Position numbers and translations under genes: made by a program. This document shows, one piece after another, positions 4,193-48,519 of a DNA stretch of 64,000 nucleotides. Position 1 is the stretch's first letter. Each line of letters opens with the position of its first letter. The stretch comes from Eledone cirrhosa (Eukaryota): the NCBI GenBank assembly GCA_964016885.1, contig OZ024762.1, positions 10,354,001 to 10,418,000 of the forward strand. The letters are read 5' to 3'. Below the pieces are notes generated by a model, which did no database searches, was not told where the DNA came from, and saw only the letters and a program-made list of their open reading frames with translations.

Positions 4193-4241
4193 TATACATG
4201 TATATATATATATATATAGATAGATAGATATACACATACAG

Positions 4242-4276
<35 letters not shown>

Positions 4277-4283
<7 letters not shown>

Positions 4284-4757
4284 AAGTTAAATAAAAGTCA
4301 AATGATTAAAATTTAGCTTCGTTTATTACTGCTATATATATTTCAGTGACAGCCATCTTTGGCTGTGACCTCTTCAGGCAGTTTGAATTAGTATGGTATA
4401 GACAAGTACATATGTTGTTTAGGTGTATAATATTGTCATATATGACTCCAGTTCCCCAGTGAATTAACAACCCAACAAGGAACTGGGCATATCAGAGTAT
4501 TGACAATATCATACACCTAAACAACATATGTACTTGTCTATACCATACTAATTCAAACTGCCTGAAGAGGTCACAGCCAAAGATGGCTGTCACTGAAATA
4601 TATATAGCAGTAATAAACGAAGCTAAATTTTAATCATTTGACTTTTATTTAACTTTATTTTACACTACTCCGGAGTAACCAAACCAACCTGCGCACTTCG
4701 TCGAGTGCTCCAGCCTGCATACTGAGGTGTTGGCATACAACCAACATAAACTCAAAA

Positions 4758-4760
<3 letters not shown>
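4277..4760. mobile_element. Fold-back Penelope-like non-autonomous element in (TA)n
   Basis: 162-bp inverted arms 4277-4438 and 4501-4662 with one mismatch seen; a hammerhead in each arm; unique tail after the right arm. Confidence 0.75.
4557..4611 (+). ncRNA. Type I hammerhead ribozyme motif (mirror copy on minus strand at 4328-4382)
   Basis: ACTGC-CTGAAGA-stem II (ACAGCCA/TGGCTGT)-GAAA-TATATA-TA-GCAGT; stem I ACTGC/GCAGT; palindromic stem III. Confidence 0.8.
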
Positions 4761-4795
<35 letters not shown>

Positions 4796-4824
4796 CAAAA
4801 GATATATTTAGTTTGGGCCAGCAA

Positions 4825-5000
4825 TTATTTGGAAGGGGAGGGAAAGTCTATTAAATGCACTCCAGTGCATTACTGGTACTTTATTTTATCGACCCCGTAA
4901 GGATGAAAGGTAAAGTTAACCTCAGCGGGATTTGAACTCAGAACACAAAGGGCCATAACTCTATGCCACTAAGCATGCTGTCCGACACTCTACCGATAAC
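4825..5000 (-). mobile_element. tRNA-derived SINE (family A)
   Basis: Reverse complement of the 487-668 core (CTGGTACTTTATTTTATCGACCCC...GGATTTGAACTC). Confidence 0.75.
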
Positions 5001-5116
5001 TTCCTGAGATCCCACATCTCTTGTGCACCCACTTTGCATTTATATTATATGTGTACCCATTATTGTGTACCCAGTTTGTATTTGAGATAGAAATATATCT
5101 ATATTATATATGGATA

Positions 5117-5292
5117 GGCAGTATCGGTAGAGAGTCGGACGCCATGCTTTGCAGCATAGTTACGTCCCTTTATGGTCTGAGTTCAAATCCCGCCGAGGTT
5201 AACTTTGCCTTTCATCCTTACGGGCTCGATAAAATAAAGTACCAGTAATGCACTGGGTAATTGGTGGCCTTGTGCCAAAAATAGAAACAATT
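5117..5292 (+). mobile_element. tRNA-derived SINE (family A)
   Basis: Close copy of 487-668. Confidence 0.8.
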
Positions 5293-5363
5293 ATATATAT
5301 ATATATATAGATAGAAATGGTTTCTACAGTACTAGAACTGTTTCATTCGAAGGAAACCCTTAG

Positions 5364-5412
5364 GCTTTCCTGATGATTTCCTTCGAATGAAACAGCTCAA
5401 GTCCTGTAGAAG
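5364..5412 (+). ncRNA. Hammerhead ribozyme motif (family of 14478)
   Basis: GCTTTC-CTGATGA-TTTCCTTCGAAT-GAAA-CAG..CTG-TA-GAAGC; preceded by an inverted partial copy at about 5313-5358. Confidence 0.7.
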
Positions 5413-5494
5413 CAATTTCTAAATTATATTTGATGTTTACACTCTACTAATGTATTGAGTACATAACTGTTATTACGCCCAATTGAACCCGGGA

Positions 5495-5529
<35 letters not shown>

Positions 5530-5626
5530 GGAAATCAGTAAAATCGAATCTCTGGCGGTTTGCAAGTAAATTCGCCCTACTTATATGAAATGATGAGTTA
5601 GCAAAGCATTCGATAAGATAGGACCT

Positions 5627-5682
<56 letters not shown>

Positions 5683-5684
<2 letters not shown>

Positions 5685-5888
5685 CGAAGGAAATGTGGTA
5701 AGGAACCAGGTGGACCATAACGCACCAAAGTACTCAATACTTGGGGTAGTAGAGTGGGTAATAGGAACCAGTAAGACCCCGACGGCTGAGCTCAAGCCGT
5801 TTCGACGGCTAATTCTGGACTAAATTTAGTCCAGAATTAGCCGTCGAAACGGCTTGAGCTCAGCCGTCGGGGTCTTACTGGTTCCTAT
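5683..5888. mobile_element. Fold-back element (family B) containing the 3' half of a hammerhead
   Basis: Perfect 128-bp palindrome 5761-5888; GAAA-CGGCT..AGCCG-TC-GGGG; relatives at 6076-6234, 6310-6475 and 43912-44105. Confidence 0.7.
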
Positions 5889-5897
5889 ATATATATA

Positions 5898-5957
5898 TAT
5901 ATATATTTCAAGGGTACCAAGACAACATTGGTACGCTTTCATCAGATAAAATACAAA
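5898..5957 (-). ncRNA. Hammerhead motif, 3' strand of stem I lost in the TA run
   Basis: Minus strand reads TATTTTAT-CTGATGA-AAGCGTACCAA..TTGGTACCCTT-GAAA-TATATATA. Confidence 0.6.
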
Positions 5958-6232
5958 GTTTGTTTTATAAATAGAGACAAACCCATTAAAATCATACCTT
6001 ATCGGTTGGATATTCTCTGGTTTCTTGCTTCAATACTTTCTATAGCTTTCATTTATATATATATATATATATATAACAAAGGAAGTGTGGTAAGGAACCA
6101 GATGGACCATAACGCACCAAAGTACTCAATACTTAGGGTAGTAGGGTGGGTAATAGGAACAAGTATGACCCCGACGGCATTGAGTACTCTGGTGCGTTAT
6201 GGTCCATCTGGTTCCTTACCACACCTCCTTCG

Positions 6233-6287
<55 letters not shown>

Positions 6288-6587
6288 GATGCATTCAGTT
6301 TAAAACTGGTAGACCAGTACTCAATACTTAGGGTAGTAGAGTATGGTTTTATTATAAAGCGACGGGACCCCGGCGGCTGAGCTCTTGCCGTTTCAACAGC
6401 TAGCTCCAGACAGTGTCAGGAACTAGCTGTTGCAACAGCAAAAGCTCAGCCGACGGGGTCCCGATGTTTTATAATATATATATATATGTATTTAAAAGTT
6501 AAACATGGTTTAATGCATACATCAAAGAATCACTACCATGACAGAATCTTAACCATCTACCATGTCAGGGTATGTCATGTATCATTT

Positions 6588-6654
6588 TATTTTATCTGAT
6601 GAGGACGTACTGTTGAACTTAACTCAGTACCTCTGAAATATGTATAATAAAATA
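6588..6654 (+). ncRNA. Type I hammerhead ribozyme motif
   Basis: 8-bp stem I TATTTTAT/ATAAAATA, CTGATGA, stem II GTACTG/CAGTAC, GAAA-TATGTA-TA. Confidence 0.75.
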
Positions 6655-6772
6655 TAATTGATCACAAGAATATCTATTTTGTTAATATTTTGAATTAATA
6701 TATATATATATTTTGCAAACTTGACTGTCACCACACATTATGAATTGCAAACTTGACTGTCACCACACATTA

Positions 6773-6811
6773 TGAACCTGAAGATTGCGAAAGTATGAAA
6801 GTACTTGTTCA
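6773..6811 (+). ncRNA. Minimal type I hammerhead motif (39 nt)
   Basis: TGAAC-CTGAAGA-TTGC(GAAA)GTAT-GAAA-GTAC-TT-GTTCA; palindromic stem III AGTACT. Confidence 0.7.
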
Positions 6812-6970
6812 ATTAACACTTAACATTTAATATTCTATCATACTATTTCATTATAATACCATTATATATATTTTAAAGGATTGTAAATAAAATGAGTAAA
6901 TCAGACAAAGTTGGAATTAATATAATCTTCTATACACAATCATACACACCCGTGTATATTTATCTCTCTC

Positions 6971-7009
<39 letters not shown>

Positions 7010-7084
7010 CAGGTGAGTCTAAAGAGCGGTGCCCCAGCATGGCCTCAGCCTTATGGCTGGAACAGGTAAAAGAGTAAAAGAGTA

Positions 7085-7117
<33 letters not shown>

Positions 7118-7119
7118 AA

Positions 7120-7196
7120 TATAGAAATGGCTTCTACAGGACTGATGATTTCTCCCGAATGAAACAGTTCTAGTCCTGTAGAAGCCATCTATATTA
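7120..7196 (+). ncRNA. Hammerhead motif of the 14478 family with its 5' flank replaced by an inverted copy
   Basis: CTGATGA-TTTCTCCCGAAT-GAAA-CAG..CTG-TA-GAAGCC, bracketed by GGCTTCTACAGGAC / GTCCTGTAGAAGCC. Confidence 0.6.
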
Positions 7197-7228
7197 AATT
7201 AAAATATATATATATAATATAATATCAA

Positions 7229-7744
<516 letters not shown>

Positions 7745-8302
7745 GTGTGTGTAATAAAAGTTTTACTTCACCTGGTGAATATATAATTAATAACAAGTAT
7801 GAACGAGGTGTCAAATTTTCATCAAGTTTATTCAGGTGTGACGCATGTTTCGCGATTGATTAGCTCAAGGTTGATTATCGGGGCCCGACTCTGTAATCAA
7901 AAGTTCATCAGACTTCTGTAAGCTTAAACTATATATATATATATATCACATAAGAAACGGAGAATATATATATATATGTATATGTATACAGGATGTCTCC
8001 AAAAATGTATACACACCTCAACAATATTCTAATAAATATTGCCTGTACAGGTAATCCAAGTGTGTATAGCATACATATTTTTGGGACACACATATTTATA
8101 TATATGTATGTATATATATATATATGTGTATATATATATATTTATGTATATATATATATACACACATAATTAAAATTGTATACACTTAACATGTATGCGC
8201 GACGTTAGGTTTCAGAGTCCAGTTATGGCCACCACTGCATAGACGAGTGTTCCCTTTAAAAAGTTGTTTTTCGTTCGTTGTCTTGTTCCCTCTGTTGGTG
8301 CT

Positions 8303-8384
<82 letters not shown>

Positions 8385-8562
8385 GTAAAGTTATATTTAA
8401 AATTGTTGGGTTACAACTAGTAAATATTTATAACTGATATAAAAGCACTCGACAAATACTTGGAGTATATTTACAATATACTGCTAGAGTAAACCTCTTC
8501 AAATGAAGTTGATGTTTATTACGGTATGTCGAATATATTTATCTATAAAACTGTTTATATTG

Positions 8563-8629
8563 TATTTTGTCTGATGAAGGCATAGGCATATTGTTAATAT
8601 GATATCCCCGAAATATATATAATGAAATA
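8563..8629 (+). ncRNA. Type I hammerhead motif; degenerate relative at about 8828-8890
   Basis: TATTTTGT-CTGATGA-..CATATT/AATATG..-GAAA-TATATA-TA-ATGAAATA; the 8836 copy has GAAT instead of GAAA. Confidence 0.65.
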
Positions 8630-8685
8630 AATATGGGTTTTATAAATATAGTTTTCCATTTATTTAGATTATTGTATATATATAT

Positions 8686-8729
<44 letters not shown>

Positions 8730-9179
8730 ATATATATATATATGTGATATTTATTAAAATAACAGATTAAAGTTTAAGCAAAGAATCGCTGCTTTCACAC
8801 TTAACGGGATTATAAAAACATATTTTGTATTTTATCTGATGAAAGCGCACCAAATTGGCCTTGGTGGGCACTTGAATATATATTATAATAATTATGTTTG
8901 GTTTTATAAATATAGTTTCCATTTATTATTATTGAATATTAATACCAGTAATCTGTTGAGTGCTTAGATATCTTAATAAAAACTTCTTAAGCATGATGAA
9001 TCCCAACAAAATTAAATAAACTTCTACATAATTATTTATATCTATATTATGATATATTATTATTTATAAGTATTTGTTTAGTGTGTGAGTGTAGTGTGTG
9101 TGAGTGTGATGTGTTGTTGAGTGAGTTGTGGAAAGTGTTTAAAGATGTATACACATTTTTTAGATGTGATGAAGTGTGT

Positions 9180-14186: not shown

Positions 14187-14364
14187 CGAGGGGCAATCCC
14201 AAAAGTAAGGTCTCCTTCCGATATTGCAACTTTTCCCTTAAAATCCTGTGGATGGTGCTTCGGGGAAACCTCAGGAACTAAAATGCAGAGAGCATCCAGA
14301 GTGATCCGCCGATCTTTACGCATGTTTTCCTCGGAAGGAGACCTTACTTTTGGGATTGCCCTCG
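14187..14364 (-). mobile_element. Internally deleted mariner element
   Basis: TIRs of about 30 bp (CGAGGGGCAATCCCAAAAGTAAGGTCTCCTT) with TA on both sides; interior translates to DRRITLDAL..HRILREKLQYRK, a transposase HTH remnant. Confidence 0.85.
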
Positions 14365-14477: not shown

Positions 14478-14529
14478 AGCTTCCTGATGATTTCTCCCCG
14501 AATGAAACAGTTCTTGTCCTGTAGAAGCT
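14478..14529 (+). ncRNA. Type I hammerhead ribozyme motif within a short element (about 14373-14610)
   Basis: AGCTTC-CTGATGA-TTTCTCCCCGAAT-GAAA-CAG(TTCTTGTC)CTG-TA-GAAGCT; perfect 6-bp stem I; downstream tail homologous to about 5420-5497. Confidence 0.75.
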
Positions 14530-14611
14530 TTTCTATATTAAATATTTATGCTCTGCTATGTATTGAGTACCTTACTTACTGTGGTTACCCCCGATTGAAC
14601 CTGGGATAACT

Positions 14612-14654
<43 letters not shown>

Positions 14655-16215: not shown

Positions 16216-16415
16216 NNNNNNNNNNNNNNNNNNNNNNNNNNNNNNNNNNNNNNNNNNNNNNNNNNNNNNNNNNNNNNNNNNNNNNNNNNNNNNNNNNNNN
16301 NNNNNNNNNNNNNNNNNNNNNNNNNNNNNNNNNNNNNNNNNNNNNNNNNNNNNNNNNNNNNNNNNNNNNNNNNNNNNNNNNNNNNNNNNNNNNNNNNNNN
16401 NNNNNNNNNNNNNNN
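16216..16415. other. Assembly gap (200 N)
   Basis: N run. Confidence 1.
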
Positions 16416-16870
16416 ATATAATTATTGGGAGTTCCACCACCCCTAAATATAATATAATTATTGGGAGTTCCACCACCCCTAAATATAATATAATTATTGG
16501 GAAGTTCCACCACCCCTAAATATTATATAATTATTGGGAGTTCAACCACCCCTAAATATAATATAATTATTGGGACGTTCCACCACCCCTAAATATAATA
16601 TAATTATTGGGAAGTTCCACCACCCCTAAATATAATATAATTATTGGGAGTTCCACCACCCCTAAATATTATATAATTATTGGCAGGGTTCCACCACCCC
16701 TAAATATAATATAATTATTGGCAGGGTTCCACTAGCCCTAAATATAAACTATAATATCAATATGCACACTACACATGCCACCGAAGGGTGGTTTTTCTGC
16801 TAGTGTAATATAATTATTGAGAGGTTACACCACTCCTAAATATGATAAAATTATTGGGGTCTTCCACTGC
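16416..16870. repeat. 37-39-bp minisatellite, truncated by the gap
   Basis: Unit CCACCACCCCTAAATATAATATAATTATTGGGAGTT; same array at 42330-43170. Confidence 0.95.
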
Positions 16871-17516
16871 CGTTAAACCTTGGGAACAGGCCATGATATC
16901 AAATATCTTTAAACCCTTCAGCATTTAAACTGGCCATATCCGACTGCAGCAAGCCACTTATACTGATGTTATGGTATTGTTCTGAAAATAAATATCAAAA
17001 TCTCATAGATTCGATATTATGTGAGATAAATATATAAGATAAATCCTTTACCGTGAAAATATAATAGTAAATATAGAGTAATGTAAATGCTAATGGGTTA
17101 AACAGCCTCTATTATTAATGCTATCTTCTTTATTTCAGTTCCTTTGAATTCAACCGTGTAAAGAAACTGCTACAATTGAACATTTTGACTTCCCAATGAC
17201 TCTTAATATTCTTACCACTGAGAAACGCTTCACCTTTTTCTAAATAAACCAAAAGACTTTCTTGCAAATTATTCAGTTGTTTTGAGTTTTATATTTTATT
17301 TTTATATATATTCCTACATTGTTCTGTGTCATTATATATATGTGTGTGTGTATATATACATATATATATGTGTATATATATATATATATATGTGTGTATA
17401 TATATATATGTATAAATATATGTATATATATATACATATATATATATAGGATTTCGCTTCAAGCATAGCTACGGCTTCCTAAATGTTCTTGTAAACATAC
17501 CGTGTTTCTTTAGAAA

Positions 17517-17650
17517 TTTTTGTTATGTTTTTGTCGGTGTTTTTGCATTTCACTAGGTGTTTCTTAAATGAGGAAACGTTAGTATTGAGGTGTTCTTTTA
17601 TTCTTATGTGGAGTGGTCTGGTGGTGCTACCTACGTAGAAGTTGCTGCAT
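17517..17650 (-). pseudogene. Truncated Penelope-like GIY-YIG endonuclease fragment
   Basis: [20 protein letters not shown]; shortened version of 45321-45570. Confidence 0.75.
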
Positions 17651-17738
17651 ATATATGTATATATATATATATATATATATACATATATATCTATGTATAT
17701 ATATATGTATATATATATATGCATATATATGTATGTGT

Positions 17739-17770
<32 letters not shown>

Positions 17771-17817
17771 GCATATATATGTATGTGTATATATATGTAT
17801 ATATATATATATGTATA

Positions 17818-17886
<69 letters not shown>

Positions 17887-19789
17887 CTATATATCTATAT
17901 ATATCATCATCGTTTAACGTCTATCTTCCACACTAGCATGGGTTAGATGGGTTTGTCCTATTTAGAGGCAAGCTGGGTTGGGTGACCGTGACTCACTCAT
18001 ATAGGGCTGTTTTCTACGGCTGGATACCCTTCCTAACGCCAACCACATTTGCAGTGTGGACTGGCTGTTTTTTACCATGTCACCTACACAACCTCTTTAC
18101 AGTGTGGACTGGGTGCTTTTTGCCATGTCTCCTACACGACCTCTTTACAGTGTGGACTGGGTGCTTTTGTCCATGTCTCCTACACGTCCTCTTTACAGTG
18201 TGGACTGGGTGCTTTTTGCAATGTCTCCTACATGACCACTTTCCCATTGAAAATATCTCTATGTTAATTCAGAAAAAATGGTAAATCTGATGTAAATGGA
18301 ATTAAAAATAAGAGATTGATGCAAACAAAAATGTTGAAACCAGGTTATGTGGCAATGACCTCCTAGAGGGGTATTGTGGAATTAAGTATTGCCTGGTACT
18401 TGTGTCAAGTAACAATGATCCGGGGAGGGGCTATGAACGACAGCTGTAATAACATCAACAACAAATATCCAACAGTAGTGACAGCTTTCCCACCACCACC
18501 AAATAAATAGACAGATAGATAAATATTAAATAGATGAGTCCATTCGTTATGTCAATTATAGTACAGATAATATTGGAAATAGTGTAATAATAATAATAAA
18601 ATATATATATATATATATATTTATGCAATCAAAAGGTTGTGAGTGCAATTCTCAGACCGAGTGATGTGTTGTTTCCTTGAGCAAGACACTTTATTTCACG
18701 TTGCTCCAGTTTACTCAGCTGTAGAAATGAGATGATAGGGCTGGGATCCCTATCATTCCACTGTAAAGTGGTCGTGGGGGTGCCACGGCAAAAAAAAGGC
18801 ACCCAGCCCACACCGTAAAGTGGTCGTGGAGGTGCCACAGAAAAAAAAGGACCCAGCACTCACTGTAAATGAGGTTGGTGTTAGGAAGGGCATCCAGCTG
18901 TAGAAATCATGCCAGAATCGGTTCCCGTCCCAGCCTTGCAAGCAGGGAAAAGCGGACGTAAAATAATGATGATGATGATGATGATATATAAACAAAATTA
19001 GCTCAAATATCGAATCTTGAAATGTGAGTGTATTAGAATTTGTAGTACAATGGAAAAGCTTGGCGTAAGGAAGCTGTTAAAACAGCAAAATATTGTTGAT
19101 GTAGCGTTGGGTAAAACATTACCTCGAGGGACAGAGATCAGCGACTCGATTCAAGTTGAATCGAAGAAATGATAGGAAGGAAGAAATAGAATGGATGAGA
19201 ATAGGTGACAAATATTAAAATATGTTCATCAGATCTCAGCCACTGCAGTTTACACACATACATGTTCCCCACCAAGGCACAAGTCTGGTCAAGGTGTGTT
19301 TGTGGAAGACCAACAGTCACCCATGTATACCAGTCTCCTCTCTCCATGCCACCAATGTTGTCCAAAGGAAAGGCAATGGCTGATACAACTTGGAACCAGT
19401 GATGCCACAACTCATATATACACTCTATATATACATCATGTAAAGTATATATAGACTATGTACATTATCATCATCATCGTTTAACGTCCATCTTCCACGC
19501 TAGCATTGGTTGAACGGTTTTGTCCCGCTTGAGGCGAGATTGGTCGGGAGACCGTGTCTCGCTCATACAGAACTGTCTCTGGCAAGTTTCCTAAGGCTGG
19601 AAGTACTTCCTAACATCAACCATATTTACAGTGTGGACTGGGAGCCTTTTTACTGTGTCTCCTACACATTATATATACACTATGTACATTATATATACAC
19701 TATGTACAGTATATATATACTATGTACTGTATATATACACGATGTACAGTATATATACACTATGTACAGTATATATATACTATGTACAT

Positions 19790-21100
19790 AATACTTAGCT
19801 TTTGTTGACCTAGAGAAAGCCTTTGATAGTGTACCCCAATCTGTCATCTGGTGATCCCTAAGGAAACTAGGTGTTGAGGAATGGCTTGTGAGGACAGTGC
19901 AAGCTTTGTACAGAGGTGCTGTCTGTAAAGTGAGGGTAGGAATGGAGTTTAGTGAGGAATTCCAGATACAAGGAAGAGTCCATCAGAGTTCGGTCCTCAG
20001 CCCGCTCTTGTTCATTCTAGTCCTCCAAGCCATAACAGAGGAGTTTAAGACTAGCTGCCCATGGGAACTTCTCTATACTGACAATCTGGTTTTTATAGCA
20101 GAATCAGTAGAGGAGCTAGAGAATAAATTCTGGCTATGGAAACAGCAGTTGGACTTAAGAGGACTGAGAGTGAACCTAGCTAAAACAAAAGTGTTGATAA
20201 GTAGAAAAAAGGACAAAACTCTGATGGCCATGTTCGATATGCAGAAAAGGAATTGGCATACATTCTATAAAATGTACACAATGCAGATCTTGGGTACACA
20301 CGAGATGTAGTGGGATAGCAGGCAAACTACCAGGTAGGGAAAACTACGTATGCAGTAGATGTACAGGGAAATTTGACAGTAGAAGTCGCATTGATAGACA
20401 CATTTTTCAAATGCAAGTAGGTTCTATAAAAGTGGTTGATAGCTTCAGTACCTAGGTGATCAGATTAGTATGGGAGAGGGGGGGGGGGTGTTCCGAGGCC
20501 ATAGTATCTAGAATAAGGACAGGCTGGAAGAAGTTTAGGGAGCTGCTTCCTCTGGTGACAAAGAAGGGTTTCTCCCTGCATACAAAAGGTTGGTTGTTTG
20601 ATGCCTGTGTGAGATGCACAATGTTGCATGGTAGTGAGACATGGGCAGCAACTGCAGAGGATATGCGAAGGCTGAAGAGAAATGAAGCAAGCATGCTCCA
20701 TTGGATGTGCAATGTCAATGTGAGTGAAAGACCAAGTATGGACGAGTTGAGAGTGAAACTCTATAAGAAGGATAAACTGCAGTGTGCGGGAGAAAAGACT
20801 GCGTTGGTATGGCCATGCGATGCGTATGCAGGATTACCGCAGGGTGAAGAAGTGCCAAGTAATCCCAGTGGGAGGAATATGCAGTAGAGGAAGACCAAGG
20901 AAGATATGGGCAGAGGTAGTGAGAGCTGACCTCAGATCGTTGAAGCTCAGAGGAGATGATGAAGGAGAGATGCTGCGCTGAAGAGGATCTGTCCCACCCT
21001 TATAAGCAGGGAAAGGTGGATGTATAATGATGATGATATATATATATATGTCCCACCCTTGCAAGCAGGGAAAAGCAGACGTAAAATGAAAATGATGATA
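19790..21100 (+). mobile_element. Decayed RTE LINE 3' portion
   Basis: LAFVDLEKAFDSVP, VHQSSVLSPLLF, ELLYTDNL, LHGSETW and RLRWYGH motifs with stops and frameshifts. Confidence 0.9.
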
Positions 21101-22309
21101 TATATATAGATAGATAGATAAATATGTATATATATATATATATATTTATACTTATACGTCATGGTGGCTACAGGTGCCAATAGGAAGAAACCGGACAATC
21201 CTCTGATATTTGTTTATCTTCCTTTCCTTCGTGGGCCGCGGTACCCGGGTTTGTGGCCGAAGCGACCAAGTTGAAATCGGCCACTGGTGGTTGATATCAC
21301 CAGGTTAGGAAACCCTGGTTTAGTCGCTCCAGTTATTACTTCGTTAGACATAGTCCGTAATTGAAATTAAAGCCTAAAGGTGTACTAAAGCCACAAACGT
21401 TTTTCTATCTATGAATTATTAGTGGTGTAAACAGATGAATTAAAGTCAAAGTTAACAAATATATCACCAAGAAGAATATCTAAGGATTTCCAAAGTGTAA
21501 AGTCAGCTCAAGCCTGGAGACTTATCAAGCAGGTGCCTGTCCCAGTTCCTGTAGCGTAAAGGGACTGAGAGTACATGACTTCCCCCTGGACATGATGTCA
21601 GTCGATCGCAGGGTTAACCCCCCACCTATGTGAAATGAAGTTTTTGCTCAAGTAAAACAACTAACAACACAGTTCAGGAATCGAATACACATATGATCGT
21701 AAGACCACGGGCCTCCACTATCGAAGGATCTACCCTTCATTAAAGAATACATTAGACTTATGCTTACGTCGCCGACATAATTATGGTTGGTCGGAAAGGA
21801 CATTACTGAAAATAAAGAATGAACAACTAAAGGAAGACAACAGAAACGGTCCCTCCTATCTGAAATATTAAGGAAGGAATCTACACAGGAGGGCCCATCT
21901 TCCTACCAAAAGAATTATTTTAACAAGCCTACATCCTACTGAGCCCAAGAAAGGGGCCTCATAACTAGAACAGGCCTCATTTGTCCTAAATACGGAGCTG
22001 ACTTTACATATAATTATATATATGCAATAAAAGCAAAATCTTTAACTTAATTATATATATGCATATGTATATATATATAGTATGTGTGTGTATATGAAGA
22101 TGTATGACCCCTAGCAAGCCAAACTACAGTTACTCCCCAACATGGAGAGCAAATTAAAACATTACCTGTTAGAGACGAACGTGAAATGATTTGTGAGTGA
22201 ACTACCGGTGTAACAGTAATTATGTTACCGGTGTAACTATTTCTGTTTACCTTATTTTTAAATCACACTCCTATATTAGTTTAGTGACCTTTCAATTCAA
22301 ATAAATTCT

Positions 22310-22720
22310 TGATGATGAGTGAACTCGCATCGGAGTAGCCCAACGCCTTGGCCTCCGCGTGTGTGAGCCACATAAATGCTCTCAACGACATAATGAGAAG
22401 AAGCCTGGACGCAGCTGACTTTCCATCTCAACAGGAGCCAGCAGGCCTAGGCCGCGGAGATGGCAAGCACCCCGAGGGAATCACCCTCTTCCCATTCGAA
22501 GGAGGTAGATCCACAAACCCCGGCATCGCTGCCCGTCTCGCAGATAAACAAATTCCGGTGTTTGTCCTGGCGCTTCTTCTACGCACCAGCCGCCGTCGAG
22601 ACCCCAGGCCTACTTGGACCCATTACAGCTGAGCTCCTCCGCAACATCGGAGTGTCTGTGGCCCGTCTGAGGATGGAGTCCCACAAGGTTGGATGCCTGT
22701 TGCAGCAGGTGTCACTGCCC
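22310..22720 (+). mobile_element. Remnant of an RLE-type (CRE-like) non-LTR retrotransposon C-terminus
   Basis: NALNDIMRRSL..EPAGLGRGDGKHPEGITLFPF and PAAVETPG resemble the DGKRPDG restriction-like endonuclease region; frameshifted. Confidence 0.6.
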
Positions 22721-22938
22721 TTACATATATATACGTAAATGTTCCCTTGACTGCTATTTCTAGCATATATTAATAGACACTTTAGAAACAGAAGCTAAAA
22801 ATCTGGAAACAACAGTGTGTGTCTGTATATATATACACAGAGAGAAAGAGAGAGATATAGAGAGAGCAGCCAAAGACACACACTCATACACATAGGTGTA
22901 TGTCTGCATGTATGTATATATATGTGTGTCTGTGCGTC

Positions 22939-22977
<39 letters not shown>

Positions 22978-22992
22978 TATTTATATTTATAT

Positions 22993-24177
22993 CAGTGATC
23001 CCCAACCTTTAATTAAACAAACCTGCTATGTAGCGATGATCAAATTAAACACCAAAATGTAAACAAACAGCCCATAGGTGCTGCCGGATACACGATAACA
23101 TGTGTAGACGAAGTAAAACTTTTATTACTGTAATATAAAGTAGAAACCCCTTATTTAAACAAAGCTGCGATGCAGCGATGATCAAAACAAACCTCAAAAT
23201 GTCAACAAACTTCTCGTAGGTGCTGTCAGATACACGATAACATGTGTATCTGGAAGTTTGGTCGTATTATATCACTTTCAAATTGACCCCTATTATATTC
23301 AAATTATCCCCTGTGGGGCGTGCACCCCACGTTGAGAATCCCTCATAAATAAATATATGTGAGTGTGTTGCTATGACTGCTATTTCTAGCAGGTTTACTG
23401 CAGTCCTGTAGACGCACAACAAAAACCGGAAGTGGCAGCCATTAAAAAACTTTGGCTTAAAATCAGGCAAAAGTTTTTTAACAATTTGCCAAGAAAGATA
23501 ACTCTTGTCTTACTTAATCGCAAAAATCGAGGCAAAAATTTTGCGGGTGTGCAGTTTGTTTGGTGTATTTGACTGCTATTTCTAGCATGTATAGACACTT
23601 TAGAAATAGCAGCGAAACACGGGAAACATCAGAAAGAAGGACACACACATTTTTGTCTCGATTTTTGCGATTAAGTAAGACAAGAGTTATCTTTCTTGGC
23701 AAAAACACCCTGGTTTGTTTACATTAAATTTTCTATTGTTTAAAAACTTTTGCCTGATTTTAAGTCAAAGTTTTTTAATGGCTGCCACTTCCTGTTTTTG
23801 GTGTGCGTCTACAGGACTGCAGAAAACCTGCTAGAAATAGCAGCCATAGCAACACACTCACATATATTTATTCATGAGGGATTCTCAACGTGGGGTGCAC
23901 GCCCCACAGGGGATAATTTGAAAGTGATATAATACGACCCAACTCCCTGTTACACTTCGTCTACAGATGTTATCGTGTATCTGGCAGCACCTGCGAGAAG
24001 TTTGTTGACATTTTGATCATCGCTGCATCGCAGCTTTGTTTAAATAAAGGGTTTCTACTTTATATTACAGTAATAACACTTTTACAAGACTCGGATTGTT
24101 TTTATATTAAAGGGGGTACATAAACATATTTTAAATGTCGAGGTGGGGCATGGTGCAGAGAAGGTTTTAAACCACTG
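22993..24177. mobile_element. hAT-like fold-back non-autonomous element
   Basis: TIRs CAGTGATCCCCAACCTT / AAGGTTTTAAACCACTG; similar 8-bp flanks ATTTATAT/ATATATAT; internal inverted arms of about 400 bp (23110-23530 vs 23655-24085). Confidence 0.75.
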
Positions 24178-24954
24178 ATATATATTTATTTATGCCCTTC
24201 TTTCTGTTGTTTTTTAAACTCTGAACTCAGCACCTTTCTGTTGTTCTCCGGGATTCTAGCAAAGTATAATAATATATATACATATATATATATATATCTG
24301 GTAGTCAACCTCAGACTCGAAAAAGCCGCCGCTAGTCGTGATCGTTGGGGTTATAATTAGACTAAAGTGCTTCCACATTGCACCATTAGCTGGTTGTGAT
24401 CATTGGAGAATTTCTTTCTGCGCTGAAAGAGCCTAGGACTAAAAGATATAAATATATATAGATGTCGAAACGGCAGTAGCACAGCCGTTGGGGTCCTGAA
24501 TATTTTCACATCTATATATGCGTGTGTATTCTGCGACATTTATAATTACATAAGCAAGCATATTTGAATAACAAAATTTGAGGTTTAAATACTTTATTTT
24601 TTACCAATAACATAGAGAAAGGCATGAACAACACCACATGTTAATTACTTTAATATTGAAAGTAGGCTTATAAATATTAAAAAAGCAGATTTTTGTATCT
24701 TTCATGGTGGTCTGGTGGGTGATACCAGAGATGGTGGTAGTCCTGGTTTCGATTTCAATCCTAGTCATGGGTTACATATAAGATTTCAATTTTTTTGACT
24801 GGGGTGAAGTGTCTGTCGGTAGAGATCTCAACTCTCACCATACGAAATATATTCAGAAAGAGATATTTCTCCACGCCATCAGTTATCTCGTCTTCATTCC
24901 GTTTCTATATATATATTTTTTTAATAAATAAAGTTCTAACTATAAGTACGACTA

Positions 24955-25280
24955 ATTTACTCAGTAGAGTTGCGCTCTGTGCATGGCGCTGCACGTAACG
25001 TTTCGCGCTTCGCTGTCGTACTTCGGTATGGCATAATCATTCTATGTGTCTGAAGATCGAATCGTTGCGGCGGCAGCCCCGCTCTATGCTGGCCGGCGTC
25101 CCCGCCTCGCATTGAATTTTTACTAAAAAATTCGCCGTTTGAATTACTTGCCCCTGATTGGAACTCTTCTCGTTTGTTGTCATTCTTCTTTATTGAATTA
25201 AACTGTTAACATCGTTTGGATTTACTCGTGTAATTTGATAGAATCAGTCTGGATATTATACTAATGGTGAGAGGTATGTA
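24955..25280 (+). promoter_or_regulatory. CpG-rich promoter/first-exon-like module, copy A
   Basis: Local CpG cluster, UUCG hairpin 25014-25033, ends in donor-like GAG|GTATGT at 25273/25274. Confidence 0.45.
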
Positions 25281-26364
25281 ATGTTTTATTTACCGTATAT
25301 ACACTCACAGACATACATTATTCTATATGCCTTTCATCCTTATGGGGTCGATAAAATAAAGTACCAGTAATGCACTGGATAATTGCTGGCCTTGTGCCAA
25401 AAGTAGAAACAATTATTCTATATACAGAAAGATTCTAGAGACGTACATATTGTTTTATTTAAACCTAAATACACACACAAAACTAGATTTATATATTTAT
25501 AAATGTTCTTTAGCTGAGGTAAAATACCCTCTAATTTACCTATACGAACGCTTTATTTGCCATGTATATTTTAATTCATTGCTAAACACTCGAAAATACA
25601 GTCTTAGATATATATTAACATTCTTTAGTGATTGCATTCACCTCTATAATCCATACACTGGAAGAAACGTTTCCTATCTAGATCAATATACACATATAAA
25701 GCTACATTTATATATACACCTTCATTCTTCTAAAGAGGTATGTAATGTTTTAGTTGTCCCTTAAATTCATCGATAAACACGTAGTTATTCCTGAGACACA
25801 AGAATATATTCCACTATCCTTCATATACAGGAGGAATGTTAGAGACGTATATGTATAATATAACCGTCTTTTTACTAAGAATAATAACTAAAACCCCTTC
25901 ATACTCAGGAAAACTAAACATTATATCTACATACACCGCCTTCTGTCTTATTCATAGTGGTACATTGTTAGAAGTAACTAACTAAGCCTTCTCTCGAAAC
26001 TATCATTGCATATTTTAAAATCCACTTCTTCATATACTATATTTAGGTTTAATCAATACATATATTGATGATTGGAATCATGGTCTTAAGATTACCCAAA
26101 TCGATACTAACTATTACAAATACAGATCTCTCTAAGGCTATGTTACCTACATATTAATTGTTCTGAAAAGATGCATCAGTCTTCTCCTCTATGGAGCAGA
26201 AACGTGGCCCCTCACAAAGACGATTGACAGCAGTGCCCTGAGGACCATCACAGCCTTAGTCTCGTTCAACGCAGTAGCACCTGGTCGGCTCTACTCATGA
26301 TGATGCCGGTCTAGTCTAACAAGAATAGATGTACAAAATACTCGAATATAAGGAAAATGTTATA

Positions 26365-26725
26365 AATAAGTATGCCTATTTGACTCTGTAGAATTGCGGT
26401 TTGTGCGTGGCGCTGCACGTAGCGTTTCTGGCTTCGCTGTCGTACTTAGGTATGGCATGACCACTCGATCGTGTCTGAAGTTCGAATCGTTGCGGGAGTC
26501 GGCCGGGTCCACAGCAGGCTGGCCTACTCTCCCCCACGCATGAGTTTTTGCCAAACAATTTGACGAGAGTTATCTCCCCTTAATTTGAATTATTTTCCCT
26601 TTGTTTACATTGAACTACTTCCGGTTTGTGGAACCCTTCTTACTTTGTTGTCATTTCTTTTCAGTGCATTGAAGTGGTAACATTCTACTTACTTGGATTT
26701 TACGTTCGTGTAAAGAGGTATGTAA
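26365..26725 (+). promoter_or_regulatory. CpG-rich promoter/first-exon-like module, copy B
   Basis: CpG cluster, ETS-type ACTTCCGG, FOX-type TGTTTAC, donor-like GAG|GTATGT at 26717/26718. Confidence 0.5.
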
Positions 26726-28177
26726 AGTTTTATTTGCCGTATATACACACACATTGTTGAGACACAAAAGTAAGTTGCCATGTCTTTTAAAGAAACAAAA
26801 CTAAATATATACACGCAGCTACCTCTTCTAACTAAACATACATGTTACCCTCCTCTATTATGAAACAAAACTAACCATGATCTGTATATATACACACCTC
26901 TTCTAACATGTTACAACTAAATCTTCTCTCGATACTATATACATACTTGTAAGGAAATATAACCAAGCTTCCTCTCTATACACATTTTATCTTCTGTATA
27001 TAAACCTTATACCTGAATACACACACAGATATTCTATATACAAGAAGACACTTTTTCACGTAAATACACAAACACTTCAGGCATATTTATGTATTTGCCG
27101 TAAATTTATTCTAAACCATGTAGAGGAAGAATCCTGGGGACATACGTACACATGAAGCTATATTCATATATAAACGGTCTCCCTTCTATCATAACAGATA
27201 CTTATGAGGCGCAATATACAAACTTGTTCATACTGGAATAATAGACATGAAACTAAACCTTCTCTAGACATGAATATAGAAGCTAAACCATACAGTTATA
27301 TTTTATATCTAACGAAGCATGGTAGCTCCATTACTCTGCCGTAAGACTCCTTACTACTACTTCTAGCATCCTCACCTACTTGATAGCTACATCATCCATA
27401 TATAAACGTTCTTCACTAGATACAAAACTAAACCTTTATATATACACAACTAACCTATTTTATATTCCTAAGGAACAGCACCAGACCTGGAGACTACTAC
27501 AACCCTATCTCCAGAAAGAAAGGTAAATAAATTGTGAAATAAAAGAATAAACCAGTATTTTCCTTTGTTGCCTTATTATTTACTCCCTGTATATATACAC
27601 ACACACTAGACACCTCTTACACTGTAGGAAGACAAAAACCTTCTGTCACTGTATACTAGATTCATATTATATAAATTATTTCCTAGATACACACCTATTA
27701 GAAACAAGCCATCTCTATATACAGGTAAATAGCATCAATGTAGACATGTCTGTATATAAGAAACTGTATTCTATAGAATATATCTAAACCCACATTGTGT
27801 GTCTCTTTAAATTATACACGTGTATGTAGAAAGCTGGAAGTGAACATCATACATATATAAGATAAGAGGTTTTGATCTGTACATACATATCAATACATCC
27901 TCGCTAGATACTACACATACGTCTCTTAGGAAACTACTACTATTGTTCTTTTAGTTGTGTATAAGCATCTCATAGTAGAACGTGTACATGCTTCCTAAGA
28001 AGCAAGAGAGCTAACTGTTCTCCTCTAGACAGGCATACTCACCATATATAAAGCATATCTTCATTGTAAATTTAGAAGTTACACTACACAGATATAAAGA
28101 CAACAACCTACATACATATTAATACCCTTATATCTCTAGACTACTGTATTATATAAATATAGCTAAGGAATTAAAGA

Positions 28178-29176
28178 TGTATGTATGTGTATACATATGT
28201 ATGTATATATACGTATGTATGTACACATACATACGTATATATACAGACATACGTATGTATGTATATATACATACGTGTGTATACATACGTATGTAGATAT
28301 ACATACGTATATATATATATATACTTACGTATGTATGTATACATACATATATATGCATACGTATGTATGGATACATGCATACATATGTATGTATGCATGT
28401 ATCCATACATACGTATGTATGTATATATACATACGTATGTATAAATATATACATACATATGTATGTATACATACATATGTAGACATATACATACATTCGT
28501 ATGTATGTATACATAGACGTATGTATATATAGATACATGCATATGTATACATACGTACGTATGTATATATACATGTATATATACTTACGTATGTATGTGT
28601 ATATATGCATACGTATGTATATATACAGACATATGTATGTATATATACATATGTATGTATACATACGTATGTGTATGTATACATACGTATGTATGTATAT
28701 ATACATACGTATGTATATATATATATGTCTATATACATACGTATGTATGTATATATACATGTATGCATACATGTGTATGTATACATACATATGTATATAT
28801 ACATACACATGTATATATACATACGTATGTATATACATACGTATATATATACATACGTATGTATATACATACGTATATATATACATACGTAGGTATGTAT
28901 ATATACACGTCTGTATGTATGTATACATACATACGTATATGTACACATACATACATATGTATATATACATACGTACGTATATATACATACGTACGTATGT
29001 ATACATATATATATACATACGTATGTATATATATATGTATGTATACATGTATGTATACATACGTATGTGTATATACATATGTATATATATATACATACAT
29101 ACGTATGTATGTATATATACATATGTATGTATGTATATATATACATATGCATGTATGTATATATACATACGTATAT

Positions 29177-29208
<32 letters not shown>

Positions 29209-29242
29209 AGACATATGTATGTATATATATAAACATACATAT
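28178..29242. repeat. Complex (TATG/TACA/TACG)n microsatellite
   Basis: Direct reading; rearranged equivalent at about 56886-57878. Confidence 0.95.
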
Positions 29243-30619
29243 AGCTAAGGAGTTGAACTTTTTTCTCTAGATAGAGATAAGTATGTGTATTCTATAGGAT
29301 ACTATTACCTTAAAACCACCTGTATATATACACTTACTTCTATAGAATCCATACATATTAACACCCTTCTATCTCTAGGCATATGTATACAGACAGAAAG
29401 AAAGAAATGGCCTCACTATAATACTGCATTATATACACTACTTTCATGAAAGATGTTTCAAACTGAATTCATACTTCTATTCCTATATACATACTGGGAG
29501 AGATATAGAATACAAATTTATTCTATATACAGAAGGAAATAAACTTACGTATATATACACATTATAAATGTTTATAATATGAAACTTCTTTATTAATACC
29601 TCTATCCCTATATACTTACTGGTAAGTATGAGAGAGATATAGAATATCCACATAACCCTGTATATATAGATATTATAACCTCTTACAGGAGATATAGAAT
29701 ACCTATATACACAGAAAGAAATAAACTTGCTAGGATTACTGTATTATATATATATACATACAGTTTCCATTCTCAAAGAAACTTTTCTATAGCACCACAC
29801 TTACTTCTTTCAGTAAGAAGGATGTTTCTTACTGGGATTCTATAGTGTACATACACATTAATTAATCTATTCTATATATACACTTCTTTCAAGAAGGATG
29901 TTTCTCACTAATTACATAATAATTGAATTCTCTCGCATGTTAATACCTTTTTATCTCTAGGCATGTGTTTAACAATCCACTAGTTATATATACACAGCTG
30001 TTAATTCCTATATATTTAATATGAATGGAAGTTAAACGATCTACATGTAAGATACTACCTGTGTATATATATAAGAAACAAAAATGTGAAATAAAGATCA
30101 ATAAATAAACTACATTTTGTTGTTGGAGTTATTTTATTTCTTGAGACGACTGTGTGTATTTACACACCAAGTTGAGCTAGCGGAGATCTTCAACATACCT
30201 GGAAAGAAGCAGAGGGTATTAATAAAAACAATCCAGATTACACAGCTCTAACACCAATACTTTTCTAGAGGCAGAAATTAAACCTCTTTATCATGAACAG
30301 TTTAGTTTCTTAGGAGAGTGGGTATAGGGATGTGAAATACAGTTTCTTATATGCCTCTAGATAAGGTATTACTGTATATATGGGTTTTTTTAATTATAGA
30401 GAAGGATAGTAAATATAAGCCTTCTAGATGTTACAGAGGAGGCTCTACATACAAAAAGTAGATTCTTTGCTGTGTACACACAATATCTAGTAGTAAGTTT
30501 CTATATATATATAGAAGTGTATTATATACACACATGTGTACAATATTTATATAACAAGGCAGTGTATTCTATAAAAAACTGTATGTATGGGGAGTTTTTT
30601 TCCTCTATTGAGAAGGATA

Positions 30620-43170: not shown

Positions 43171-44372
43171 GTTAAACCTTGGGAACAGGCCATGATATCA
43201 AATATCTTTAAACCCTTTAGCATTTAAACTGGCCATATCCGACTGCAGCAAGCCACTTATACTGATGTTATGGTATTGTTCTGAAAATAAATATCAAAAT
43301 CTCATAGATTCGATATTATGTGAGATAAATATATAAGATAAATCCTTTACCGTGAAAATATAATAGTAAATATAGAGTAATGTAAATGCTAATGGGTTAA
43401 ACAGCCTCTATTATTAATGCTATCTTCTTTATTTCAGTTCCTTTGAATTCAACCGTGTAAAGAAACTGCTACAATTGAACATTTTGACTTCCCAATGACT
43501 CTTAATATTCTTACCACTGAGAAACGCTTCACCTTTTTCTAAATAAACCAAAAGACTTTCTTGCAAATTATTCAGTTGTTTTGAGTTTTATATTTTATTT
43601 TTATATATATTCCTACATTGTTCTGTGTCATTATATATATGTGTGTGTGTATATATACATATATATATGTGTATATATATATATATATGTGTGTATATAT
43701 ATATATGTATAAATATATGTATATATATACATATATATATATAGGATTTCGCTTCAAGCATAGCTACGGCTTCCTAAATGTTCTTGTAAACATACCGTGT
43801 TTCTTTAGAAATACGAAATTTCTATATATATATGTATATATATATATATATATGTGTATATGTATGTATATATATATATATATATATGTGTATATGTATG
43901 TATATATATATAACAAAGGAGTTGTGGTAAGGAACCAGATGGACCATAACGCAACAGAGTACTCAATACTTAGGGTAGTACAGTGGCTAATAGGAAAATG
44001 TTTGACCTCGACGGCAGAGCTCAAGCCGTTTCGACGGCTATTTCTGGACTGAAATAGCCGTCGAAATGGCTTGAGCTCTGCCATCGGGGTCATACATTTT
44101 CCTATATATATGTGTGTGTGTGTATATACACCTGGCAGAGGGGAAAGCGGCTAATTGGTCTGTCGTCCTTTCTGTCTCTGATTTTTCGGACCCATGGTTT
44201 TTACATATTCCTTTGTTATATTTCGAATACCTGATATCACCGGATTCATATGGAACCCGGTCATTGAAATGATCATGGTATAATAAACCTTTGAGTACTC
44301 TCCACAATATTACACCAAGATTGACCATACGAATGACCAATTCTATTGAGTGGTGAACCAACAAACCTAAAG

Positions 44373-44440
<68 letters not shown>

Positions 44441-44445
44441 ATATA

Positions 44446-44496
<51 letters not shown>

Positions 44497-44548
44497 GTGT
44501 GTATATATATATATATATATGTATGTATATATATATATATATATATAC

Positions 44549-44601
<53 letters not shown>

Positions 44602-45599: not shown

Positions 45600-46430
45600 A
45601 TAAAATATTAAAAAAATAATGAATAAAACAATGAAACAGTTCCTTATATTAAACAAAAAAAGTTCATTATTTAACGATCGTTTCTAGGATATATATGTGT
45701 TAGAATTGGCATGCATATTCAACAGATCTATGTACAAAATTATACAAAATTATACAAACTATCAAAATTAAATATACATACCAAACACATATATATGCCG
45801 TCTTCAGAAATAATGAAATATATTTATTGATAATAACAACAATTCAAAATTTCAGGTCTGTTTGGGAACAGAATTCAAATTGACCAATGAAAATACAAAA
45901 AGTTTATGCAGTTAGGTGTGTGTATATACATGTAATTAACTTCGTTCACAGATATGCATAAAGAAATATATATACACACACCTAACTGCATAAACTTTTT
46001 GTATTTTCATTGGTCAATTTGAATTCTGTTCCCAAACAGACCTGAAATTTTGAATTGTTGTTATTATCAATAAATATATTTCATTATTTCTGAAGACGGC
46101 ATATATATGTGTTTGGTATGTATATTTAATTTTGATAGTTTGTATAATTTTGTATAATTTTGTACATAGATCTGTTGAATATGCATGCCAATTCTAACAC
46201 ATATATATCCTAGAAACGATCGTTAAATAATGAACTTTTTTTGTTTAATATAAGGAACTGTTTCATTGTTTTATTCATTATTTTTTTAATATTTTATCTT
46301 GACTCTGTATTCCGTTTATCTTTCACCGAAAGTGATTTTTCATTGCATCTCTTCTTTCCATGATATCCGGATTACATTGAGTTCTTCATACGGATTGGAC
46401 ACTACCGTAAACTCTTGGTAGATTTATCTA
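45600..46430. mobile_element. Young fold-back element inserted in (TA)n, absent from duplicate copy 1
   Basis: 329-bp inverted arms 45600-45928 and 45969-46297, 40-nt spacer, about 130-nt unique tail. Confidence 0.85.
46080..46234 (+). ncRNA. Hammerhead motif with a very long stem II (mirror copy at 45663-45817, minus strand)
   Basis: 10-bp stem I TTCATTATTT/AAATAATGAA; CTGAAGA 46090-46096; 116-nt stem II closed by ATATATATGTGTT/AACACATATATAT; GAAA-CGATCG-TT. Confidence 0.7.
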
Positions 46431-48519
46431 CATATACATATATATCTATGTATATATATATGTATATATATATATGCATATATATGTATGTGTATATATA
46501 TGTATATATATATATATATATGCATATATATGTATGTGTATATATATGTATATATATATATATGTATATATATGTATATATATATATATATATGTATATA
46601 TATGTATATATATCTATATATATCTATATCTATCATCATCGTTTAACGTCTATCTTCCACACTAGCATGGGTTAGATGGGTTTGTCCTATTTAGAGGAGA
46701 GCTGGGTTGGGTGACCGTGACTCACTCATATAGGGCTGTTTTCTACGGCTGGATACCCTTCCTAACGCCAACCACATTTGCAGTGTGGACTGGCTGTTTT
46801 TTACCATGTCACCTACACAATCTCTTTACAGTGTGGACTGGGTGCTTTTTGCCATGTCTCCTACACGACCTCTTTACAGTGTGGACTGGGTGCTTTTGTC
46901 CATGTCTCCTACACGACCTCTTTACAGTGTCGACTGGGTGCTTTTTGCAATGTCTCCTACATGACCACTTTCCCATTGAAAATATCTCTATGTTAATTCA
47001 GAAAAAATGGTAAATCTGATGTAAATGGAATTAAAAATAAGAGATTGATGCAAACAAAAATGTTGAAACCAGGTTATGTGGCAATGACCTCCTAGAGGGG
47101 TATTGTGGAATTAAGTATTGCCTGGTACTTGTGTCAAGTAACAATGATCCAGGGAGGGGCTATGAACGACAGCTGTAATAACATCAACAACAAATATCCA
47201 ACAGTAGTGACAGCTTTCCCACCACCACCAAATAAATAGACAGATAGATAAATATTAAATAGATGAGTCCATTCGTTATGTCAATTATAGTACAGATAAT
47301 ATTGGAAATAGTGTAATAATAATAATAAAATATATATATATATATATATTTATGCAATCAAAAGGTTGTGAGTGCAATTCTCAGACCGAGTGATGTGTTG
47401 TTTCCTTGAGCAAGACACTTTATTTCACGTTGCTCCAGTTTACTCAGCTGTAGAAATGAGATGATAGGGCTGGGGTCCCTATCATTCCACTGTAAAGTGG
47501 TCGTGGGGGTGCCATGGCAAAAAAAAGGCACCCAGCCCACACTGTAAAGTGGTCGTGGAGGTGCCACAGAAAAAAAAGGACCCACCACTCACTGTAAATG
47601 AGGTTGGTGTTAGGAAGGGCATCCAGCTGTAGAAATCATGCCAGAATCGGTTCCCGTCCCAGCCTTGCAAGCAGGGAAAAGCGGACATAAAATAATGATG
47701 ATGATGATGATGATATATAAACAAAATTAGCTCAAATATCGAATCTTGAAATGTGAGTGTATTAGAATTTGTAGTACAATGGAAAAGCTTGGCGTAAAGA
47801 AGCTGTTAAAACAGCAAAATATTGTTGATGTAGCGTTGGGTAAAACATTACCTCGAGGGACAGAGATCAGCGACTCGATTCAAGTTGAATCGAAGAAATG
47901 ATAGGAAGGAAGAAATAGAATGGATGAGAATAGGTGACAAATATTAAAATATGTTCATCAGATCTCAGCCACTGCAGTTTACACACATACATGTTCCCCA
48001 CCAAGGCACAAGTCTGGTCAAGGTGTGTTTGTGGAAGACCAACAGTCACCCATGTATACCAGTCTCCTCTCTCCATGCCACCAATGTTGTCCAAAGGAAA
48101 GGCAATGGCTGATACAACTTGGAACCAGTGATGCCACAACTCATATATACACTCTATATATACATCATGTAAAGTATATATAGACTATGTACATTATCAT
48201 CATCATCGTTTAACGTCCATCTTCCACGCTAGCATTGGTTGAACGGTTTTGTCCCGCTTGAGGCGAGATTGGTCAGGAGACCGTGTCTCGCTCATACAGA
48301 ACTGTCTCTGGCAAGTTTCCTAAGGCTGGAAGTACTTCCTAACATCAACCATATTTACAGTGTGGACTGGGAGCCTTTTTACTGTGTCTCCTACACATTA
48401 TATATACACTATGTACATTATATATACACTATGTTGAGTATATATATACTATGTACTGTATATATACACGATGTACAGTATATATACACTATGTACAGTA
48501 TATATATACTATGTACATA

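Follow-up and report, generated by a model that had tools for sequence, protein, structure and literature searches.

Inverted arms of a short repeat family in Eledone cirrhosa vary from copy to copy and resemble those of Penelope-type pLTRs

The 64-kb stretch of Eledone cirrhosa DNA that we analysed, hereafter the window, is AT-rich and dense in (TA)n runs, and it indeed contains the four copies of a short repeat, family B, that the original prediction had placed there. The strand of the repeat is set by the motif GTATTGAGTAC, which makes minus the sense strand in all four. In the first copy, B1, the long arm (5683..5824, minus strand) begins 21 nt upstream of a GAAA at 5803-5800, continues through a stem III with a palindromic loop to the TC of the putative ribozyme cut (5782-5781), and ends 98 nt later, at the long 3' end, against (TA)n. 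Joined to it with no spacer is an inverted short arm (5825..5888, plus strand) that matches the long arm at 64 of 64 positions and stops at about +20, again at (TA)n; the palindrome claimed for this copy is real, 5761-5888 being its own reverse complement over exactly 128 bp. In B2 the longer arm (6075..6178, minus) is 5'-truncated within stem III and reaches the long 3' end, and the inverted arm (6179..6234, plus) runs from +43 to the long 3' end as well, giving a long/long form with a 48-nt spacer and a 1-nt overlap at the junction; its outer arms are inverted as described, with 53 of 56 positions matching. B3 belongs to a diverged subfamily: its long arm (6300..6412, minus) reads GCCG-CC at the cut and is altered in its 3' part, and a 1-nt loop separates it from an inverted short arm (6414..6478, plus) that is identical at 55 of 65 positions. 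The long arm of B4 (43912..44050, minus) includes a 6-nt loop (44045-44050), and its inverted short arm (44051..44105, plus) has the same short end as B1; the two arms are identical at 52 of 58 positions. B3 and B4 are diverged copies with inverted arms; B1, B2 and B4 are close relatives of one another. A fifth copy, B5 (24456..24509, plus; duplicate at 53144-53197), is a solo short copy of a diverged subfamily, non-inverted and with TA-rich flanks.

The window also carries a large, recent segmental duplication (16416-35361 versus 42715-64000, 97-99.9%), next to a gap of 200 N at 16216-16415. A 1.6-kb indel between the duplicates, 43813-45443, contains B4; we considered it as an empty site for B4 and rejected this reading. 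Other inverted repeats, long or short, lie in the duplicated block at 23113-24085, 34633-34696 and 63271-63336.

A second family, A, is variably inverted, as had been claimed. A1 (5312..5498, plus) consists of an inverted short arm (5312-5356), a 20-nt spacer, a complete type I hammerhead motif at 5370, a segment shared with family B and a long end, the inverted structure spanning 5312-5421. A2 (about 7116..7201, plus) is inverted otherwise, over about 7116-7197, in a short/short form with a 28-nt spacer and a 2-nt junction overlap, and has lost the 5' strand of stem I. A3 (14478..14612, plus) is a solo long copy, non-inverted, with a complete hammerhead motif at 14484. The motif said to be common to both families, GTATTGAGTAC, occurs exactly six times, always in A or B copies and 37-45 nt after the putative cut, where 0.08 occurrences would be expected. 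It closes a longer common segment, CACTCTACTA...GTATTGAGTAC (5726..5757 in B1, minus), which scores 30 between B1 and A1 (reached by 0 of 500 shuffles; B1 against A3, by 2 of 500) and is predicted to fold into a weak bulged hairpin (-2.3 to -9.8 kcal/mol). The segment is a putative protein-binding element. We did not find it in two unrelated elements of the window, C and I, where 492 and 122 of 500 shuffles reached the score.

These two elements nevertheless share the overall build. Element C (4279..4760) has two arms placed head to head, each of which carries a complete hammerhead motif, and its right arm likely carries a further 95-100 nt, up to an inferred right boundary. Element I (45600..46431) has 332-bp head-to-head arms that are identical at 331 of 332 positions and separated by a 34-nt spacer; each arm contains a hammerhead motif with a 116-nt stem-loop II, and a 134-nt extension is found on the right arm only. 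It is a young insertion of 832 bp, absent as one block from a paralogous TA run at about 17676, which implies that inverted arm, long arm and extension arrived together, joint deletion being less likely. The one-sided 3' extensions measure about 79 nt in B, about 70 in A, likely about 95-100 in C and 134 in I, and that of I is part of the insertion.

The window is rich in further repeats. A dense group of hammerhead-like elements of several families occupies 4200-8960 (4377/4562, 5370, 5945 on the minus strand, 6596, 6778, 7142, 8571 and 8837), and the TA run to the right of B1 continues from the GAAA-TATA of the minus-strand element at 5906-5945. Within 8747-8950 two hammerhead-like families, J on the minus strand and the family of 8837 on the plus strand, appear to meet head-to-head at about 8810; the pair 8747-8812 and 8810-8950 may be a two-template join or a case of nesting. 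Family J, a degenerate hammerhead-like repeat, is also found at 662-790 and 1175-1270, and in the first of these an arm beginning at the putative cut site has an inverted arm attached to it. At 7220-7617, 135-bp inverted arms (91%) flank a (TG)n run, apparently tail-to-tail, with a CTGGTGA variant of the core. A tRNA-like SINE family, with a B-box-like motif recognised by eye, is present at 4816-5291, 476-663 and 41654-42082, and its copies at 4816-4998 and 5106-5291 stand head-to-head with diverged arms. Broken LINE-like open reading frames lie at 30935-33481 (endonuclease and RT), 36510-38509 (RT and PHD finger) and 19855-20310 (RT fragment). A Pfam scan of 15 of the 104 open reading frames in the window returned LINE-like endonuclease, RT and PHD matches, and among these 15 there was no Penelope-type frame, that is, none combining a PLE-type RT with GIY-YIG, whether beside A or B or elsewhere.

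Our ribozyme calls rest on a custom type I hammerhead descriptor, with 60 simulated windows as the null. The window holds six complete motifs, where the null averages 0.017; once long loops are allowed, two more are added, each with a 116-nt stem-loop II. Rfam returned no hammerhead at gathering score across the whole window, and none among the 96 weak matches in 4200-9000; weak Rfam matches to microRNAs, B1 and B3 among them, we rejected as hairpin or TA artefacts. By the descriptor, A1, A3, C and I hold the complete motif of a putative ribozyme, and B only its 3' half, consisting of GAAA, a stem of 4-5 bp with a palindromic loop, and TC. The claim that B keeps just this half stands in so far as CTGANGA does not occur upstream of B, neither in the window nor among the 22 loose ends listed of 431, each 30 letters long, but the half is not intact in every copy, since the long arm of B3 has GCCG-CC and B2 lacks GAAA-CGGC. 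A scan for the half-motif in the window returns 20 rows, 13 of which are non-B, and it is the position of the half in B, at the same 37-45-nt spacing to GTATTGAGTAC as in A, that weakly suggests a ribozyme remnant. Element I, with its 116-nt stem-loop II, shows that B could have its missing half more than 100 nt upstream. The unique 30 letters behind 5811 in 1,329 reads of a RAD library lack a ribozyme core, and a search with 18 of them gave no match in the window; they may be native upstream sequence or the flank of one locus. Exact-pattern scans of metagenome, viral and prokaryote collections returned no loci.

Where do the copies turn? At base level all junctions differ, in agreement with the idea of a different turn in each insertion, but three of the four B turns lie within 6 nt of each other. 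Their centres are 21.5 nt (B1), 19 nt (B3) and 15.5 nt (B4) upstream of the G of GAAA, with loops of 0, 1 and 6 nt. The turn had been placed just upstream of the half-ribozyme in three copies, which holds for B1, B3 and B4 (15-22 nt upstream of GAAA), B2 turning elsewhere. A feature that had been missed is that the inverted arms of B1, B3 and B4 have a common end about 20 nt after the putative cut. In B1, B2 and B4 the long arm stops at +98, and family B thus has two fixed outer ends, long (+98) and short (+19/20), both of which are joined to (TA)n in public sequencing runs. These ends occur in several combinations in the window: long/short in B1, B3, B4, A1, C and I, long/long in B2, short/short in A2, solo short in B5 and solo long in A3. 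More generally, window copies and public runs alike combine fixed 3' ends with variable 5' truncation; an adjacent head-to-head, inverted, 5'-truncated copy is present in B1-B4, A1, A2, C and I; and the insertions lie in AT-rich or (TA)n targets, again both in the window, including element I, and in the public runs. Since insertion takes place inside (TA)n, target-site duplications are illegible, even in the filled/empty pair of element I.

In B1, B3 and B4 the two arms have copy-specific bases in common. In four-way comparisons, bases shared by both arms of one copy and absent from the other copy occupy 6 of 58 columns for B1/B4, 13 of 61 for B1/B3 and 12 of 58 for B4/B3, and in none of the three is there a column in which the arms group by side. 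Other arms are less informative: that of B2 matches its partner and B4 equally well (53/56 each), the inverted arm of A1 matches its own long arm at 39 of 47 positions, A2 at 38 of 45 and A3 at 38 of 46, and the A1/A2 comparison of arm grouping has no informative site in 25 columns. Grouping by copy would also be expected from conversion between arms or from palindromic masters.

We aligned 4 of 23 public runs to the B1 long arm at 80% likeness. Matches were found in 21,086 of 17,142,217 contigs of run X1, 502 of 17,641,350 contigs of X5, 41 of 8,254,286 contigs of X6 and 24,615 of 12,467,656 RAD reads of X21; family B is very abundant, these run counts not being copy numbers. Among the 15 joints listed of 20, 14 connect opposite strands. 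One of these links both outer ends; the other 13 have one side in 5805-5824 (8 distinct positions, from 2 to 21 nt upstream of GAAA), their second side being at 5723, 5727, 5738, 5739, 5784 or 5764-5767. Eight of these 13 have a side at 5764-5767 and may be alignment breaks, since a subfamily diverges from the reference there. Several joints are backed by a single contig or have a side shorter than 30 letters, and the sample is biased, as perfect palindromes are expected to interrupt contigs, the reference ends at 5824 and the RAD library appears to have been cut at 5811-5814. We had considered the drop in RAD depth at 5814 (7,221 molecule ends) as a 5' limit and rejected it, an AATT site at that position pointing to a restriction cut. 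Two joints, 5767/5806 and 5767/5811, appear repeatedly, in runs that carry the labels of two organisms. As for microhomology at the turns, there is little: the overlap is 0 in 13 of the 14 opposite-strand joints listed and 1 nt in the remaining one, and 1-2 nt in B2 and A2.

The same runs bear on the outer ends. Among the 22 loose-end rows listed of 431, (TA)n directly precedes 5761 in 98 X1 contigs, 2 X6 contigs and 3,531 X21 reads, the subfamily form of this short end accounts for 99 contigs and 1,329 reads, and a variant of the long end for 98 contigs and 1,418 reads; in 100 X1 contigs a subfamily with the 5' limit of B1 reads directly into (TA)n, non-inverted. The other TAT sites of the arm, at +42 and +62, are absent from the 3' loose ends among these 22 rows. 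The short end is seen beside (TA)n in three of the four runs. Depth in X5 peaks at 5728-5757, the segment shared with family A, at about ten times the depth over stem III, and no variant in GAAA or TC occurs among the 40 variants listed of 148.

What process could give fixed outer ends, variable inner junctions and arms that match within a copy? Quite probably the inverted arm forms at the time of insertion, either by twin priming or by snap-back of a cDNA. Our leading, still tentative, reading takes family B for a non-autonomous piece of a Penelope-like pLTR. On this reading its inverted arm likely arises during insertion, by priming on both target strands. A Penelope-type enzyme would nick both target strands at (TA)n and copy one RNA from two start sites, corresponding to the long and the short end; two 5'-truncated cDNAs, joined at their 3' ends, would then form the head-to-head junction, and turns would cluster 15-22 nt upstream of GAAA if the template ends or the enzyme stalls there. 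In this scheme we infer the RNA intermediate, the enzyme, the use of both ends as starts of reverse transcription, the single RNA behind each pair of arms and the end-joining with little microhomology, and the assignment of A and B to Penelope-type elements (PLEs) is suggested by their anatomy. The fixed ends, the variable inner junctions, the arms matching within a copy, the (TA)n flanks and the filled/empty pair of element I count in its favour; against it count the failure to find a Penelope-type frame among the 15 frames scanned, the arms of B2 and A1 that match other copies as well as their own partner, the joints at 5764-5767 that may be alignment breaks, and the 79-nt difference between the ends of B, twice the published tail of 30-40 nt. 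Twin priming would account at once for the fixed ends, the matching arms and the scarcity of overlap.

Snap-back, in which a single cDNA folds back at its 3' end and primes its own extension, with cutting or joining of the copy at the short site, is a possibility to be taken seriously. The loops of B1, B3 and B4 are tiny or absent, the centre of B1 is a short self-complementary AT tract, the arms of young copies are near-identical (64/64 in B1, 331/332 in I), and palindromes at inverted junctions have been read as self-priming in PMC3846280. Yet the joints, biased as the sample is, show next to no overlap, an extra rule would be needed for the copy-back to stop at +19/20, and A2 and B5 would still require the short end as a start. 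Moreover, snap-back is impossible for the two-family join of 8747-8812 and 8810-8950, although nesting could explain that join. Two priming sites, used on the two strands of the target, account more simply for the fixed short end and for short/short and solo-short copies. We regard priming of both strands on one RNA as more likely than snap-back of a cDNA, even if the two products, two primed cDNAs or one snapped back, would look alike in sequence alone. The original prediction, that the inversion is made afresh by self-priming or template switching, is upheld as to the absence of a fixed terminal inverted repeat; self-priming or template switching may be the step, but the overlap is zero in nearly all joints listed.

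The arms could instead be inherited from a few palindromic masters, or could owe their origin or their likeness to hairpin repair or conversion after insertion, near fragile (TA)n, which we consider improbable. In its favour, the turns of three of the four copies lie within a few bases of one another, as do three of the four short ends; two joints recur in runs labelled as two organisms, and conversion too would group the arms by copy. On the other hand, the close relatives B1, B2 and B4 have three junctions, non-inverted copies exist, such as the 100 X1 contigs that run from the 5' limit of B1 into (TA)n, and the build is repeated in the unrelated families A, C and I. We reject an ordinary MITE with fixed terminal inverted repeats and later decay, the outcome that was to have overturned the original prediction. 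TA flanks, small size and high copy number would suit a MITE, and B2, alone, has terminal inverted repeats; in B1, B3 and B4, however, the termini are different positions of the element, with no constant inverted repeat at both ends, the junctions vary in the public runs, solo forms are present and the arms group by copy. A conventional element of this kind at 14188-14364, with perfect terminal inverted repeats of at least 31 bp and TA flanks, looks different from family B; we take it to be a mariner-like MITE. Hairpin chimeras do arise in sequencing libraries and B1 is a perfect palindrome, but a fold-back artefact of sequencing or assembly is hardly credible when the arms of B3 and B4 differ at 10-15%, the short end lies beside (TA)n in three of four runs, and element I combines a spacer with an extension on one side and is missing from its paralogous site.

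Returning to twin priming, a more specific version would have family B live as a SINE-like parasite on Penelope-type elements: its working ribozyme lost, it would need only the small hairpin shared with A and be twin-primed from starts about 79 nt apart on a single RNA. We think this rather unlikely as a whole, but if it were true, the many thousands of short B copies would be a readable record that could decide how inverted pLTRs and their tails form. More practically, since a whole B insertion fits one short read and the family is so abundant, statistics of its junctions and ends could discriminate between twin priming and snap-back. Elements like B are easily mis-annotated as MITEs or as microRNA hairpins, as the weak Rfam matches of B1 and B3 illustrate, and they seed many palindromes beside (TA)n runs.

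The inverted-arm structure is a known feature of PLEs, and the likeness to inverted Penelope pLTRs drawn in the original prediction is apt and already published (PMC8557442, PMC3846280). Our searches of titles and abstracts found neither families A and B nor PLE twin priming, prior annotation in Repbase or Dfam being possible; PMC8969392 and PMC13282606 serve as context only. Craig et al. 2021 (PMC8557442) describe, at the 5' end, a copy that is both inverted and 5'-truncated, together with a one-sided tail of 30-40 bp, both typical of PLEs, and (TA)n targets, and name the formation of inverted pLTR and tail structures an outstanding mechanistic task; Arkhipova et al. 2013 (PMC3846280) report palindromes at head-to-head junctions and propose self-priming. 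The elements studied here resemble these pLTRs of endonuclease-bearing PLEs in the 5'-truncated copy with its head-to-head inverted partner, in the junction palindromes, in the extension on one arm only and in the AT-rich or (TA)n targets. They differ in unit size, 60-830 bp without a visible ORF, in an extension of about 70-134 nt rather than the published 30-40, and in that every B copy seen lacks the 5' half of the ribozyme.

Minimal metazoan PLE hammerheads, solo or on opposite strands, were described by Cervera and de la Pena 2014 (PMC4209133). Like our elements they are type I with a short palindromic helix III, mostly solo and sometimes in opposite-strand pairs 100-700 bp apart; the parts of that paper available to us note such pairs without mapped turns or ends, and element I differs in its 116-nt stem-loop II. 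Animal non-LTR retrozymes (bioRxiv 10.64898/2026.07.22.740005) are likewise short, non-coding repeats with a hammerhead, presumed to stem from pLTRs and to rely on PLE enzymes. They form head-to-tail arrays with a complete ribozyme in each unit, whereas the window holds no tandem copies of A or B, and B has no CTGANGA.

A further parallel is with Poseidon of Anolis (PAc), for which Frangieh et al. 2024 (PMC11167929) report that a PLE protein, once purified, nicks AT-rich DNA on both strands and extends each of them. Two internal RNA starts delimit the tail, one of them, by subtraction of published numbers, 85-92 nt after the ribozyme cut, and ribozyme cleavage is dispensable. There are differences: the parts of that paper available to us do not treat inverted insertions, A and B are known here without a protein, and the hairpin that they share lies between the two ends and not at a start site. 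The likeness is that in both systems two fixed genomic 3' ends lie downstream of a hammerhead, the farther of them about 90-100 nt past the cut, with AT-rich targets and with ribozyme cleavage not required.
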